56,342 bases of DNA, taken from the NCBI GenBank assembly GCA_023267045.1, contig JAHFOB010000004.1:1-56342 (forward strand). The letters are read 5' to 3'. The position numbers were made by a program, and so were the translations under genes. Below, piece after piece: positions 7,661 through 20,180 of this stretch. The number at the start of each line of letters is the position of its first letter. Position 1 is the stretch's first letter. A model generated the notes under the pieces. That model was not told the origin of the DNA. It did not search any database and saw nothing but the letters and a program-made list of their open reading frames with translations. The DNA comes from Candidatus Zambryskiibacteriota bacterium. Its GTDB lineage: Bacteria; Patescibacteriota; Minisyncoccia; Phycocordibacterales; DATDWN01.

Positions 7661-9469
7661 TTAACTCGGAACAAATATTATTTCTTGTGATGTCCAGCTT
7701 GAATTTATAGGCACAGTTACATCTTGAGAAATATAACCAGTTTTTGTTAAATGCATAGTGTAAGTGTCTGAAGAAAGTCCAGTGAAAAAAACTTGTCCTG
7801 GCGGAGTACATAAAGAAGTAAATGTGAAAGAAACGTCTGAAATATTTGGTGTAGAAGTTGATAGAGCGGTATCGAGAAATATTTTATAGCGTATATATTG
7901 TTTACCGTTGTTACTTGCTGATATGTTTTTATTTGAAACAGTATAGTATGTACTAGCTGTGCCATCCGGACCAGTAAAATTCCATGTTACTGTATCGTTG
8001 TTTGTGGCTATTTGTAGACGAACGTTTGGAGAACCTGTTTGCACTGGCTGGTCAACAGGATTCCAGTTTATTTGTTGAAAATTGACTTGTGAACCAATAT
8101 CAAAAGTCGATGATGTTAGTGTGCCACTTGGAACGTAATCTCCAAATATTGATTTTAGTACAACATCACCGACAGGATTTTGGTTTTCAATATTTCCATC
8201 AGAGGAAAGATATTTGGTAGGGTCAGTTGATGTCGCTTGTCCCCCCCCACCAGACCAGTCTGTCTGACCGAGAAAACCTTGACCAGTGATTTTTGTAGAA
8301 TCAAACCCAGTAGTGCCGACCAACTCTACTGAAACTCCAGAAAGAGGAAGACTGGTGACACTATCTTTAACAGTAATCAAAAGAGTTTTGGGATTTTTTG
8401 CCGTAACTATAAGTAAGACATTTTGACCGCTATTTGGCGTTAGAGAAACTGGTGAAATCGGACTTATACCAACTAAATCATATGCAGTGTCTATGTTTGC
8501 GAAAGTATATGAATCCCATTCGAGATTTGATAAAGAAAGAGCGCCGTTTGAATCAGTTATTTTGTTTTGGCTGTATTTATAAACACTTGGTAAAGTGCCG
8601 ATAAGTTTTGCACCAGTCAAAGAAAAATCTATACCAGGAACCGGAGCACAAGTATCTGAAGAAGATGTGACAGAAAATGAGCTAAGTTTGTCAATAATAA
8701 AACTAGTTTGTGTGACTTGTTGCAAAACAACCGTGGCGTGTGGTTTTGTCGGATTTGGATTGTTAATGGTCGCAGTATAAGTTTTGTCTGTTGAGTATCC
8801 TGCTTTTGTTACGGTGATTTCATAAGCGTTCACTCCCGGTGGAGCATCAACTATTTGTAAAACTCCGCTATTGTTCGTAACGTCATCTATAGTAATGGCA
8901 GGATTTACTGCGTGATTTTCCACATGAACGTTAGCTTCAGTAACGGGATTGCCGTTTGCATCAAAAACTCGAATAAAAAGCGCCCCGTTAGTCGAAGCTG
9001 TCTCTAGGTTTTTCGGAGAAACGCGCGTGGTGACGATCATCGGTTTGAAATTTTTGCACGTTGCACAAGTCACATCAATCTCAACTACTTTTGAATCTGC
9101 TGGCGAAAGATCGTTTGGTGTTCCGCCCAAAGTTCCGTCAAAAGGGTCGTCATAATTTCTGACCGTTGTAGTCACGGCATATGAGGTGCTGTTTCTTACC
9201 AAGTTTTGTATGTGAGTTAGCTTTCCGTTCGGTATTCCCCCAGAAATACCAACGTCAGAGTACGGCATATTTCTGACGATTTCTAACTGTTCGTTTACGA
9301 GACTTATAGCTTCTATTTTTGCTCGACTAGTTGAAACGACGTTGAAAATACTGATGTAAGCTCCGTAAACAGAAACAACAAGTACAGTCAGAACTGCGAC
9401 CGAGACGACAACCTCAACAAGAGAGAAACCATCAGAGAATTTTTTTTTGCTAAAAGTATTATAGTGCAT
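7661..9469 (-). CDS. Large pilin-like protein with a prepilin-type N-terminus
   Basis: 602 aa; the N-terminus KKKFSDGFSLVEVVVSVAVLTVLVV contains G/FSLVE. The long Thr/Ser/Asn-rich body suggests a beta-rich fold. It overlaps the pilC stop by 11 nt. Confidence 0.75.
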   Translation of the reverse strand: MHYNTFSKKKFSDGFSLVEVVVSVAVLTVLVVSVYGAYISIFNVVSTSRAKIEAISLVNEQLEIVRNMPYSDVGISGGIPNGKLTHIQNLVRNSTSYAVTTTVRNYDDPFDGTLGGTPNDLSPADSKVVEIDVTCATCKNFKPMIVTTRVSPKNLETASTNGALFIRVFDANGNPVTEANVHVENHAVNPAITIDDVTNNSGVLQIVDAPPGVNAYEITVTKAGYSTDKTYTATINNPNPTKPHATVVLQQVTQTSFIIDKLSSFSVTSSSDTCAPVPGIDFSLTGAKLIGTLPSVYKYSQNKITDSNGALSLSNLEWDSYTFANIDTAYDLVGISPISPVSLTPNSGQNVLLIVTAKNPKTLLITVKDSVTSLPLSGVSVELVGTTGFDSTKITGQGFLGQTDWSGGGGQATSTDPTKYLSSDGNIENQNPVGDVVLKSIFGDYVPSGTLTSSTFDIGSQVNFQQINWNPVDQPVQTGSPNVRLQIATNNDTVTWNFTGPDGTASTYYTVSNKNISASNNGKQYIRYKIFLDTALSTSTPNISDVSFTFTSLCTPPGQVFFTGLSSDTYTMHLTKTGYISQDVTVPINSSWTSQEIIFVPS

Positions 9470-17180: not shown

Positions 17181-17459
17181 ATGGAACAAAATAAATCATC
17201 TATAGGTTCTATCATCGGAACAATAATCATAATTTCAATTATTATTCTTGGTGGTTTGTATTTCTGGGGTAAAAGAGTTGAGGAATCTAAAATAAAACAG
17301 GATTTAGTAAACAGTAGCACTTCTACAACAACTGGAGACAATGAAGCGGCGTCGATAAGAAGCACAAGCCAATCTGATGATCTAGATTCTATTAACGCAG
17401 ATCTAAATGCAACAAATCTAGACAACCTCGGAGCGGAGATGAATACAACCACACCTTAA
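17181..17459 (+). CDS. Small N-terminally anchored membrane protein
   Basis: 92 aa with one TM segment (IGSIIGTIIIISIIILGGLYFW) and a Ser/Thr/Asp-rich tail. Confidence 0.55.
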   Translation: MEQNKSSIGSIIGTIIIISIIILGGLYFWGKRVEESKIKQDLVNSSTSTTTGDNEAASIRSTSQSDDLDSINADLNATNLDNLGAEMNTTTP

Positions 17460-18438
17460 TAGAATTTCTTAATTCATACGTATCCCCATGACTCAATAAT
17501 CCAAGACATGATTGGATTGTTTCTCTCGTTGGACTACCCCGTAACCCCTTCAGCATCCCCCTCTTCGCCACCGTCCGTAATACTCTATGATGCGGAAAGT
17601 GTACCCACCCAAGAAAATCTACACCAGAAGAGAGAGTTCTGATGTGGATTTTATTTGGATGAAGTGTCAGATTTAATCTCTCTTTCAGATTTACTACAAT
17701 ATACTGTAGTAAATTATGTAACTCATGTTTGTTGTGTGAGAAGAAGACAAAATCATCTGCGTAACGGATGTAGTACTTTTGATGTAGTCTGTGTTTAACA
17801 TATTGATCAAACTGGTTCATGTAGATGTTCACTAGGAGTTGTGATGTCAGGTTGCCCAGAGGCAGGCCTTTCTTAATATACGATATATCGTATATTAGTG
17901 GAGATGAGGAAAAACTTGAGATGACTTGGTTCAATAGCCAGAGTGTGTCTTTGTCTAGTATGTGATATGTCAATATTTCTAGAAGTATTTTGTGGTCAAT
18001 AGAAGCAAAGAATTTCCTCACGTCACATTTTAGTATCCAACACTGTCGTGTGTTGTTCTTACTTACTTTCCTTCCAAAATCTTTGAATCTGTTGAGAGCT
18101 CTGTGAGTTCCCTTCCACTTTCTACATGAATACGAGTCGTGAATGAATTGAGTGTCGAAATATGGATAGAGTATCCTGTAGATAGCGTGATGGAGTAGTC
18201 TGTCTCTGACAGTAGCTTTATGGATGTTTCGTGGTTTAGGGTCGGAGATGTTGAAAGCTGTGTAGCCTCCGTGGGAGTAGGTTTTGGAAGTGAGGTCATT
18301 TTGAAGTGAAATGATATTATCCATCAAATTCATTTGAAATTCTTGTACATCTTTTTTATTTTTCTTTCCTTTTAGAAATTCTTTCCAAGCAAGAAGTAAA
18401 TTGTCGGTAGAAATGATAGTATTGTATGAAATATCCAT
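17392..18438 (-). CDS. DGR-type reverse transcriptase
   Basis: RT motifs include GLPLGNLTSQLLVNIYMN (the DGR-typical xGNLTSQ) and IRYADDFVFF. The likely start is ATG 18438 (MDISYNTIIS...). The 3' end overlaps the convergent ORF 17181-17459 by 68 nt. Confidence 0.9.
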   Translation of the reverse strand: MDISYNTIISTDNLLLAWKEFLKGKKNKKDVQEFQMNLMDNIISLQNDLTSKTYSHGGYTAFNISDPKPRNIHKATVRDRLLHHAIYRILYPYFDTQFIHDSYSCRKWKGTHRALNRFKDFGRKVSKNNTRQCWILKCDVRKFFASIDHKILLEILTYHILDKDTLWLLNQVISSFSSSPLIYDISYIKKGLPLGNLTSQLLVNIYMNQFDQYVKHRLHQKYYIRYADDFVFFSHNKHELHNLLQYIVVNLKERLNLTLHPNKIHIRTLSSGVDFLGWVHFPHHRVLRTVAKRGMLKGLRGSPTRETIQSCLGLLSHGDTYELRNSIKVWLYSSPLRGCLDLLHLDLR

Positions 18439-18496
18439 ATTAGTTAATATTAAAACACACAAATGACACCCTTGATGCCCCCCCCCCGCAAAACTG

Positions 18497-18859
18497 TTGC
18501 CTGTTTTGGAAATAATTAAATCAGCATATATTACATGGCAAAGTTATATAAACATAGCCCCAAAAACTTCACGCTATACGCTGGTAGAAACGATAGATAA
18601 ATACTTTATACAAACAATAGAGAGTATTTTGATCGCAAGTTTTTTGGAGAAACAAGAAAAACAACCTTTTGTTAAGAAAGCTATTATTTCCTTAGACACA
18701 TTAAAATTTCTTTTGTATATATTATGGGAGATAAAAGCATTAGAGAATAAAAAATATATAATCTTGTCAGAAGCACTGGCAAAAGCAGGACAACAACTCG
18801 GTGGTTGGCATGGACAGATCCAAAAAAATCAACAGAAACAAAACCCGCCTAAGTTTTGA
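18497..18859 (+). CDS. avd: Four-helix-bundle protein (23S rRNA IVS / Avd-like accessory variability determinant)
   Basis: 120 aa with the pattern ...PKTSRYTLVETIDKYF...LKFLLYILWEIKAL...AGQQLGGWHGQIQK typical of the Avd/S23-IVS family. It has a TTG start and lies on the strand opposite RT, TR and the target. Confidence 0.7.
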   Translation: MPVLEIIKSAYITWQSYINIAPKTSRYTLVETIDKYFIQTIESILIASFLEKQEKQPFVKKAIISLDTLKFLLYILWEIKALENKKYIILSEALAKAGQQLGGWHGQIQKNQQKQNPPKF

Positions 18860-18889
18860 TTACAAAATTTTGGCGGGAAATGAAGTGAT

Positions 18890-19017
18890 TTGCGAAACGA
18901 CAAACGCGAAACCGTTGTCTCTGTTCCACCTGTTGTCGAGATTGCCCCAGTACGTGTTCAGCCACTGACCGTCATCGTTACGGCTAGCACCGAGCAAGTT
19001 CGGATTGCCATCGGAAT
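18890..19017 (-). other. DGR template repeat (TR)
   Basis: 128 nt aligning without gaps to 19382-19509. It is rich in AAY codons in the minus sense (NSDGNPNLLGASRNDDGQWLNTYWGNLDNRWNRDNGFAFVVSQ). Confidence 0.88.
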
Positions 19018-19301
19018 TTGTATAAAGTGTTTTCCATACCACCACTCCTTAAATATTTTTTAGAGTTGAATTTTATTTCGCATCATAATGCGCTAACACA
19101 ATATACCAAGTATCTCCATTTTTTGACCCTTCGACGGACTCAGGGTCATCCTGAATTTTGTTGAAGGATGAAGTGTCTACGTAGATCCTCCGTACAAAAC
19201 CATGATCTTGCACGCTCTCAATCTACGGATACTGGATTCGGCAGAAAGAAACCGTGATCTCTTTCATACTCACCTACTACCGTAATTTATTATATGTAAA
19301 A

Positions 19302-19328
19302 CCGCCCACGATATCCAATCGTGGGCGG
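19302..19328 (-). other. GC-rich hairpin downstream of VR (terminator and/or DGR target-recognition hairpin)
   Basis: ccgcccacgat-atcca-atcgtgggcgg has an 11-bp stem and is followed by TTTT on the minus strand. Confidence 0.65.
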
Positions 19329-19369
19329 GGAAAAGGTCAAAGGATCGAAAAGATCACAGTGACTCAAAT

Positions 19370-19990
19370 CTAAGCGCTAACTTGCGAAACGACAAATGCG
19401 AAACCGTCGTCCCTGAACCACCCGAAGTCGAGACCGCCCCAGTCCGTGAACAGCCACTGACCGTCATCGTCACGGCTAGCACCGAGCAAGAACGGATAGC
19501 CATCGGAATCTTTGATCGGTTCGTGCATGGCAATGACCCACCACAGACCCATCGATTCGATCTCCTTGTCCGTGAACTTCTCACGGATGAGGCAGGCAAC
19601 TTCAGCGTTCGGCTTCGAGAGCTTGCGCTTGTTGGCCTCGGCGCGGATCTTCGAGGTGATGCGATTCTCGTCAGAGAAAAGCTCTCCTTTGAGGACCGCC
19701 ATCTCGTAAGTCACGCCGTTGGTCAGCTTGAAATCCGACGAACGGAGTACCGACTTGGCGTAACTGCTCAAACGGAATCCGAGCTTTTCCAGACGTCCGA
19801 TCCAGTCCTCGCCGGTCGTGCCGTCGCTCGTGATGGAAAAGTAGATCACTCCGTTCTTTTCGTGCCATGAGCGAGCAGGTTCGAAAACGATAGGCTCATT
19901 GCGCAGAAAGCGTCTTGCGCCATCCACACCACCGAGTTTGTCGAAAACCGCTTCAACGCTAACGTCTTCGACGTAGAGGTTGTACTTCAT
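19370..19990 (-). CDS. DGR target protein (GC-rich, no signal peptide seen), VR at the C-terminus
   Basis: The likely start is ATG 19990 (MKYNLYVEDVSV...), preceded by ggaagg. The C-terminal 42 codons form the VR. Confidence 0.85.
   Translation of the reverse strand: MKYNLYVEDVSVEAVFDKLGGVDGARRFLRNEPIVFEPARSWHEKNGVIYFSITSDGTTGEDWIGRLEKLGFRLSSYAKSVLRSSDFKLTNGVTYEMAVLKGELFSDENRITSKIRAEANKRKLSKPNAEVACLIREKFTDKEIESMGLWWVIAMHEPIKDSDGYPFLLGASRDDDGQWLFTDWGGLDFGWFRDDGFAFVVSQVSA
19382..19509 (-). other. DGR variable repeat (VR)
   Basis: There are 17 mismatches to the TR, and 15 of them fall at TR adenines (coding sense). Confidence 0.88.
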
Positions 19991-20098
19991 GTTCTTATCC
20001 TTCCGACCGCTGGTCGGCATTTTTCTTCTACCCGTTGAGCAGAAGGCCACGGAATGTGGCTATGTTTCGCAAGTAGTTACAAAGAGCCTTACTCGACA

Positions 20099-20128
20099 AT
20101 TATACCACCTATGATAGGTAGCTGTCAA
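20099..20128 (-). promoter_or_regulatory. Consensus sigma70 promoter of the DGR target gene
   Basis: The 32-nt block is identical to 11692-11723 (TTGACA-18-TATAAT). Confidence 0.7.
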
Positions 20129-20180
20129 GCTAATTTGTGAACTTGTTAAAATAGAGCCAATAATATAGACTTTATGAATT

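Follow-up and report, generated by a model that had tools for sequence, protein, structure and literature searches.

A chromosomal diversity-generating retroelement from a Zambryskiibacteriota genome and its relatives: a conserved RNA leader upstream of the template repeat and a simple-sequence repeat at the 5' end of avd

Diversity-generating retroelements (DGRs) with an inverted avd gene and targets that resist annotation have been catalogued in bacteria of the candidate phyla radiation (CPR) since 2017. The DGR of phage BPP-1 provides, to our knowledge, the only mechanistic model for such elements, and in this model all essential RNA lies downstream of the template repeat (TR). In this study, we analyzed a stretch of 56,342 nucleotides from Candidatus Zambryskiibacteriota bacterium (contig JAHFOB010000004.1 of assembly GCA_023267045.1; hereafter the window), in which a reading of the bare letters (hereafter the original prediction) had proposed a complete DGR consisting of a reverse transcriptase (RT) gene, an avd-like gene, TR, and a target gene ending in the variable repeat (VR). 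With respect to gene order, CPR DGRs typically show architecture B3, i.e., 'TR-(avd)-RT' with a reversed avd gene (Wu et al. 2018, NAR, PMC5758913), and DGR clade 2 is restricted to Patescibacteria, with targets in which transmembrane or other recognisable domains are typically absent (Roux et al. 2021, PMC8144416). In BPP-1, organized as mtd-avd-TR-brt, the essential RNA is a spacer of 140 nt located 3' of TR, which contains the priming adenosine, Avd-binding stem-loops, and one strand of a 'stop' duplex (Handa et al., bioRxiv 10.1101/2023.10.23.563531).

Compared with architecture B3 and clade 2, the element in the window displays the same chromosomal location in a CPR genome, the same order TR-(avd)-RT with avd inverted between TR and RT, a target without recognisable domain, transmembrane segment or signal peptide, and adenine-specific mismatches concentrated in AAY codons, and we found nothing that would exclude it from membership. 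It is an ordinary DGR, a further example of the catalogued CPR kind. All defining components proposed by the original prediction are present, the mismatches between TR and VR are adenine-specific far beyond chance, and the same cassette was found in about 90 related loci. We are therefore highly confident that the locus as a whole is best explained as a chromosomal CPR-type DGR of the order TR-(avd)-RT with four transcription units and, presumably, a BPP-1-like mechanism. The features of the locus are compiled in Table 1.

Table 1. Annotated features of the DGR locus, given in window positions; promoters, terminators and the leader are predictions
Feature	Position	Strand	Remarks
DGR reverse transcriptase, 348 aa	17392..18438	-	LGNLTSQ and YADD motifs; RVT_1
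avd 5' region	18463..18496	+	ATG at 18463, ATG at 18475, C10 at 18478-18487, then 9 nt to the Leu1 codon
avd, 120 aa from TTG	18497..18859	+	Inverted relative to TR and RT; matches to Avd profiles
TR RNA 3' tail (AUCACUUCAUUU) and terminator	18836..18889	-	Hairpin 18844-18877, -15.6 kcal/mol, z = -3.4, U run
TR	18890..19017	-	31 adenines, 9 AAY codons; repeat search, alignment
Structured 5' leader of TR RNA, 8 helices	19018..19282	-	Alignment of loci, RNAalifold covariation
TR RNA promoter	19289..19317	-	TGGATA-17-TATAAT; -10 box conserved as TGnTATAAT in relatives
Putative intrinsic terminator of target	19298..19328	-	11-bp GC hairpin, loop UGGAU, U run
VR	19382..19509	-	Encodes last ~43 target residues, up to ...GFAFVVSQ; repeat search, codon comparison
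Target gene, 206 aa	19370..19990	-	ATG at 19990, preceded by GGAAGGA
Target promoter	20099..20128	-	TTGACA-18-TATAAT with TG extension, 12/12 consensus matches

TR and VR form the single long direct repeat of the region, which is gap-free over 128 nt with an identity of 87% and places VR at the 3' end of the 206-aa open reading frame (ORF), as had been predicted. In the minus (coding) sense, the 17 mismatches from TR to VR comprised nine A>T, six A>G, one T>G, and one G>A, i.e., 15 of the 31 TR adenines were changed versus 2 of the 97 other bases (Fisher p = 2.3e-9). Codon by codon, this corresponded to AAC>TTC (four times), AAC>GAC (twice), AAT>GGT, AAT>TAT, AGG>GGG, AGA>AGG, TAC>GAC, and GCG>GCA, so that each of the nine AAY codons of TR was recoded in VR. 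Both the gap-free 128-nt alignment with 15 of 17 differences at TR adenines and the list of codon changes, previously drawn up from a hand alignment, were reproduced exactly by the computed comparison. One extra A>G exchange was detected directly 5' of the repeat (codon 161, AAT>GAT). At their 3' ends, the last 27 nt or so of TR and VR are identical apart from one G/A difference, and the two sequences diverge right after ...TCGCAA; a GC-rich core of the initiation of mutagenic homing (IMH) sites, i.e., IMH in VR versus IMH* in TR, could not be delimited at these ends. A scan of the whole window with adenine positions ignored revealed no second VR. By analogy to BPP-1, the TR RNA would be bound by RT and Avd, and its TR would be reverse transcribed with errors opposite adenines; replacement of VR by the resulting cDNA would then change the nine Asn (AAY) codons, plus a few more, within the part encoding the last 43 or so residues of the target.

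The RT gene carries LPLGNLTSQLLVNIY and YADD, the two motifs expected from the original prediction, and its product was assigned to RVT_1 (Pfam, E = 1e-28). Among all PDB chains, the best match was 8ub7_A with E = 2.5e-34, while retron-type and group II intron RTs followed at about 1e-19. As 8ub7_A is an RT of 328 aa whose YMDD occupies residues 213-216, in agreement with Brt of the Bordetella phage (PMC3240598), the closest solved relative of the window RT appears from sequence comparison to be the DGR RT of the Bordetella phage. Shared features with the BPP-1 system are thus the homologous RT (with IGxxxSQ and YxDD), Avd, the 3'-terminal position of VR, and adenine mutagenesis. An RT of a group II intron, a retron or a defence system, lying beside a duplicated gene fragment, would be a different explanation of the locus; the best NCBIfam model for the RT was indeed that of a group II intron RT/maturase (147 bits, under the cut-off of 300), and homologs are publicly named 'group II intron' or 'retron-type' RT. 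We consider this exceedingly improbable, and it is already refuted by the mismatch spectrum: the adenine-specific differences (p = 2e-9) recur in about 90 loci, the DGR RT is the best PDB relative by 15 orders of magnitude, Avd is present, no intron RNA domains were detected, and Rfam yielded no group II or retron match. As for the public names, at least 7,993 sequences of the RT clade are present in public data, with entries such as P0156, P0165, P0187, and others designated 'group II intron reverse transcriptase', 'reverse transcriptase/maturase', or 'retron-type RT'; among the listed RTs of the clade, no name shown flags a DGR.

For comparison, we collected related loci from about 160 other species in two ways. 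A scan for the target, with one genome per species, yielded 178 species with a target, from which 80 loci were fetched, and a scan based on the RT alignment yielded at least 567 species, of which 57 loci had enough upstream sequence. About 37 of the 80 target-derived loci showed target(+), TR(+), avd(-), and RT(+) at near-constant spacing, with TR starting about 470 nt after the VR start. The inverted avd was present in 56 of the 57 RT-derived loci, only 8 of which contained a homolog of the window target. In 39 related TR/VR pairs, 626 of 681 mismatches were at A and 55 at non-A positions, and in about 55 further loci, serving at least 12 target clusters, mismatches were almost entirely at A as well. 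Since the leader of the TR RNA (see below), TR, the inverted avd, and RT stay constant while the targets vary, the cassette can be described as a conserved engine with exchangeable targets. Diversification of VR in nature was observed among these relatives. Among the three full-length contigs of one population (L091-L093), the sole differences over 6.6 kb were six single-nucleotide polymorphisms, all inside VR, and a 4.6-kb contig of the same population from a fourth sample (L094) additionally showed a 7-nt deletion by the TR terminator and avd stop as well as one substitution. In protein clusters at 90% identity, variable columns fell almost only into VR, e.g., 13 of 13, 22 of 23, and 14 of 15, and two clusters displayed no VR variation. 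A difference in gene calling, with avd called in L093 and not in L091 or L092, was considered as a frameshift and rejected, as the three sequences are identical there.

While the window element as a further DGR adds little, its added value lies in two features that extend across the clade, a structured leader upstream of TR and a repeat tract at the start of avd. Judging from signals in the DNA, the locus comprises four predicted transcription units, namely the target, a non-coding TR RNA, avd on the opposite strand, and RT, which is divergent from avd and separated from it by the C10/G10 tract. The original prediction had correctly placed an Avd-like ORF beside RT, which matched Avd models (NCBIfam DivGenRetAVD, E = 3.9e-12; PHROG 'Avd protein of DGR', E = 2.3e-11; Pfam bAvd, E = 1e-6), and had left unmentioned that it runs in the opposite orientation on the plus strand. 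Alignment of the interval of about 360 nt from VR to TR across loci revealed a terminator, an extended -10 box, and then a conserved non-coding stretch of about 235 nt up to TR. On the other side, TR is followed by a 12-nt tail (clade consensus CUCUCUUCAUUU), a hairpin, and UUUUG(U), about 50 nt in total and mostly terminator, which in the window overlaps the stop codon of the converging avd. TR is accordingly annotated as a putative separate RNA gene with its own extended -10 promoter and terminator.

The stretch preceding TR shows the signature of a conserved RNA structure. RNAalifold analysis of 34 species resulted in 52 pairs in eight helices, 40 of which were supported by compensatory double changes; 98% of cells were paired as compared to 85% after shuffling, for each of five measures, the observed value was reached in none of 500 shuffles, and pairing fell to 34-50% when the partners were displaced by 1-3 columns. 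The same architecture (55 pairs, 41 compensatory) emerged from a second, independent set comprising 32 RT-derived loci, most of which have other targets, and a profile of the alignment found the leader by nhmmer in 56 of the 57 RT-derived loci, whatever the target family. Its length is about 235-265 nt across the clade and about 265 nt in the window, where a 46-nt insertion is located in a hairpin loop (19125-19170). A closing helix of 12 bp ends 1 nt before TR in the window and 2-3 nt before TR in most relatives.

These findings set the locus apart from BPP-1 in two respects. While the essential spacer of BPP-1 is located 3' of TR, the window has its structure of about 235-265 nt on the 5' side and only the 12-nt tail and the terminator on the 3' side; and while avd, TR and brt of BPP-1 form one operon, the window has avd in the opposite orientation and a TR RNA with a predicted promoter and terminator of its own. 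Because little but a terminator follows TR and a large conserved structure precedes it, the leader probably supplies, by analogy, the scaffold for RT and Avd binding that the 3' spacer (Sp) provides in BPP-1. A duplex abutting the 5' end of TR is shared by both systems and comparable to the 'cPRT stop' duplex of BPP-1, so that the closing helix of the leader may act as a cDNA stop. Short complementarities, i.e., tail UCUUC-A-UUU with leader AAA-A-GAAGA and an invariant ACUUG of the leader with CAAGU at the VR end, were tried and rejected as too short and inconsistent across lineages.

With regard to known RNA families, Rfam gave no match at gathering thresholds for the window and 11 relatives. 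Structured RNAs beside RT genes have been described as RT-7 (RF03028) and RT-16 (RF03019) (Weinberg et al. 2017, PMC5737381). In permissive scans, the first hairpin of RT-7 (GAGU-stem-CAaGG loop-stem-AGAGUG) aligned with helix 4 of the leader (CCACGG loop) in two relatives (L004:6766-6819 and L012:6779-6834), a second leader hairpin has a similar loop, (G)UCAAGG(C), and RT-16 aligned end to end, weakly, with the 3' half of the window leader (19015-19143). All of these scores were sub-threshold (RT-7, 16.7-21.2 vs 116.8 bits; RT-16, 20.6 vs 50 bits; E = 0.1-2.2), and other relatives gave no match. Neither a conserved 5' leader RNA, nor a separate TR transcription unit, nor a repeat tract at the avd 5' end was found described in the literature examined, which did not include the primary paper on CPR DGRs (Paul et al. 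2017). As a compact and well-defined RNA for reconstitution, the CPR leader offers a direct test of how general the BPP-1 model is.

Simple-sequence-repeat (SSR) contingency loci with poly-G/C tracts or tetranucleotide repeats are known from Neisseria, Haemophilus, and Campylobacter. A comparable tract was found at the 5' end of avd in a survey of 97 related loci with an intact divergent avd/RT pair (L002-L066, L175-L254). It consisted of C7-C14 (mode 9-10) in 82 loci, of GA, AG or CT repeated 11-20 times in five, of the tetranucleotides (TTGG)10-11, (TTGA)7 or (CTGG)10 in four, and of G6 in two, while four loci had no repeat. Thus, a mono-, di- or tetranucleotide repeat occupied this site in 91 of the 97 loci and, as in the window with its C10, the unit was never divisible by three; tri- or hexanucleotide repeats were absent from all 97. 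Within 1.35 Mb of loci, 80 of 98 G/C runs of at least 8 nt were located at the avd/RT junction. By a median of 9 nt, the tract precedes the first conserved residue of Avd, a Leu encoded by TTG, TTA, CTG, CTA, CTT, or CTC across loci. The use of six synonymous codons identifies Leu1 as internal to the protein, so that translation has to be initiated further upstream, within the tract or reading through it. In line with SSR contingency loci, the site carries a homopolymer of 7-14 nt or a di- or tetranucleotide repeat at the 5' end of an ORF, and alternative repeat types replace each other at the same site in different lineages. Unlike in these loci, consensus tract lengths are nearly constant in the sampled populations, switching was not observed, and the controlled gene would be part of a targeted mutator, for which no such report was found; likewise, literature searches revealed no link of DGRs or Avd to SSR phase variation.

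Based on its position inside or at the start of the avd frame, the tract probably makes Avd output depend on tract length or on transcriptional or translational slippage. Such slippage-dependent control, whether genomic, transcriptional, or translational, appears plausible but unproven, and our confidence in it stays somewhat below even. In the window, a tract of C9 or C12 instead of C10 would give MTPLMPPPAKLLPVLE..., and among the 82 poly-C loci, 33 had an in-frame upstream start with the frame open through the tract, 34 had a canonical start at residue 1 or beyond it, and 28 lacked a start altogether. Alternatively, the tract might be no switch, acting instead as a fixed promoter or 5' untranslated region element or encoding a poly-proline N-terminus, with length differences being neutral or sequencing noise. 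This would agree with the near-random frame relation of poly-C loci to upstream ATGs (frame 0, 24; frame 1, 35; frame 2, 22), with the short distance of the tract to the RT start codon (median, about 14 nt), with the frequent occurrence of a -10-like TAnnAT behind the tract, and with its uniform length in nearly all near-identical contigs (four with G9, eight with G9, six with G10, and two with G10, about 20 contigs in total), which also speaks against a fast switch. We take this alternative seriously, as a possibility only slightly short of an even chance. Against it, lineages differ in the repeat type at one and the same site and never use tri- or hexanucleotides, which fits selection for mutability and not for a particular sequence; translation has to start upstream of Leu1; and in 7 of the 9 di- or tetranucleotide loci, the repeat is closely preceded by an in-frame ATG, and the ORF extends across it. 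Moreover, in one set of near-identical contigs (P0191; L255-L262), one contig had G6 and six others had G10, and the upstream ATG that is in frame differs between the two lengths, namely an ATG-TTG start with G10 (127 aa) and another ATG with G6 (129 aa).

Further observations concern the tracts themselves. Four contigs from different assemblies (L262, L267, L269, L275) end exactly inside the G tract. In addition, the window contains a C9 (2092-2100) just past the stop of ORF 1656-2084, a C7 (4850-4856), and a C8 (8241-8248) inside ORF 7661-9469 on the minus strand, which could be further slippage-prone sites or serve as controls for homopolymer errors.

A joint reading of both features, to which we give a little less than an even chance, would be one in which a heritable slipped-strand mechanism would switch Avd, and with it targeted hypermutation, on and off, and in which the DGR RNA would be 'permuted' relative to BPP-1, its 5' structured domain serving as RT/Avd scaffold and possibly as primer donor. 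The near-universal slippage-prone tract at the start of avd suggests a stochastic gating of a costly targeted mutator; if true, this would link two classic mechanisms of bacterial diversity and bear on engineered DGR systems.

Several points weigh against the interpretation of the window element as a complete DGR working like that of BPP-1. The Avd scores stayed under the curated cut-offs (29.7 vs 40 and 46.4 vs 80), and the protein therefore has to be regarded as a divergent Avd. Its start is ambiguous, as TTG at residue 1 is the only canonical in-frame start and both upstream ATGs are +1 relative to the avd frame, across the C10 tract; the description as complete and intact in the original prediction thus holds in that every part was found, but has to be qualified for avd. 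RNAalifold analysis of leader, TR, and tail revealed neither a priming site nor a TR:primer duplex, and no long-range pairing of leader or tail with the TR 3' end. The T>G and G>A differences reflect some ordinary drift since the last homing. Foldseek searches with two AF2 models of the target against PDB and BFVD resulted in nothing below E = 0.1 (best E = 0.17), leaving the fold unmatched. Finally, although the RT of the window element occurs on four contigs, no variants of the element could be retrieved; its target protein cluster has a single member, and an exact-match scan of JGI metagenomes was empty.

Some of these points would also fit a DGR that is silent or decaying, with VR diversified in the past and Avd now not made. 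Both the frame of the upstream ATGs and the two non-adenine differences, as possible post-homing drift, are consistent with this, as is the frequency of orphan targets: about half of the target loci had no TR, avd or RT within 6 kb (L001, L005, L006, L010, and others), with no TR in reach in 38 of 80 and both RT and Avd missing in 47 of 77, and one orphan target (P0046; L081-L090) was identical in 15 contigs from many samples, in contrast to the VR-variable copies linked to a DGR. Nevertheless, a silent element seems unlikely to us, given that the RT catalytic motifs, the TR promoter, the leader, both terminators, and the 120-codon avd frame with TTG at residue 1 are all intact, that related cassettes are demonstrably variable in nature, and that a phase-variable tract would be expected to be out of frame about two thirds of the time, reversibly.

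The hairpin downstream of the target gene, noted in the original prediction as lying where characterised DGR targets carry a recognition hairpin, does exist (19302-19328) and comprises 11 bp, a 5-nt loop, and a following UUUU. It is located 41 nt past the stop codon and 53 nt from the VR end and was classified as an intrinsic terminator. At the same place, 38 related loci carry a hairpin with its structure kept and its sequence differing, always followed by a T run. The hairpins of phage-related DGRs compared with BPP-1 have stems of 7-10 bp, are capped by 4-nt GRNA loops, and are found at a distance of 4-34 bp to VR (PMC3240598), a pattern that the hairpin after the window VR does not fit. 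GC-rich inverted repeats near VR have been found in only 34% of DGRs (Wu et al. 2018, PMC5758913), so that they are no strict requirement. The hairpin is hence best read as a putative terminator of the target gene, and it may additionally take part in homing, as a DGR target hairpin.

In regard to the target, the original prediction had called its family unassigned, which was borne out by profile searches without any match in Pfam, NCBIfam, PHROGs, PADLOC, or PDB sequences. Neither a signal peptide nor a hydrophobic segment was detected (maximum KD19 0.47). An AF2 model built on 88 sequences (pLDDT 84, as compared to 70 for an earlier model) predicted an alpha/beta N-terminal domain followed by three helices and four strands carrying VR. 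Its weak Foldseek matches were mostly C-type lectin domains, a non-significant excess that is suggestive only. More than 1,783 close homologs (60-72% identity, about 205-212 aa) were found, all from Patescibacteria where named, and the family comprises 2,428 cluster representatives at 50% identity, with variability in its alignment confined to the last 40 or so residues. Being highly conserved, spread over 2,428 clusters, and GC-rich relative to its hosts, this family is a candidate for addressing the question of what CPR DGRs are for.

The composition of the target gene differs from its surroundings, with 54-58% GC and a GC content at third codon positions of 70% versus 38% and about 30% in the neighbors, while avd (32% GC) and RT (38% GC) are host-like. 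In 75 of 77 loci, orphans without a DGR included, the target was richer in GC than its flanks, the mean difference being 11 points. Horizontal spread or selection on composition are possible reasons for this foreign composition. The predicted promoter of the target, a perfect match to the sigma-70 consensus, is unusual for the AT-rich window. The DGR as a whole is flanked by the housekeeping genes nusA, pyrophosphatase, tig, rsmE, and clpP, lying between the trigger factor gene and the nusA/pyrophosphatase region of a Parcubacteria/Paceibacteria-like genome, and NusA of the window showed its best identity (84%) to metagenome-assembled genomes of Patescibacteria/Parcubacteria.

Two related sequences bear on the history of the target. 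In homolog P0069, the C-terminus is TR-like and without mutations (RNDNGQWLNAYYDNPDNRWNRDNGFAFVASQLTSFLSRLF...) and comprises the TR-specific tail as well; the sequence is either an assembly chimera of TR and VR or the product of recent homing without mutagenesis that extended beyond the usual boundary. Locus L264 (about 1230-1781) occupies the same tig-linked position with a target of a different family, which shares only its first 38 residues (74%; ...YVEDVSVEAVF-KLGGVDGARR...) with the window target (19875-19987). This likeness suggests a common N-terminal module and a mosaic exchange of the variable part.

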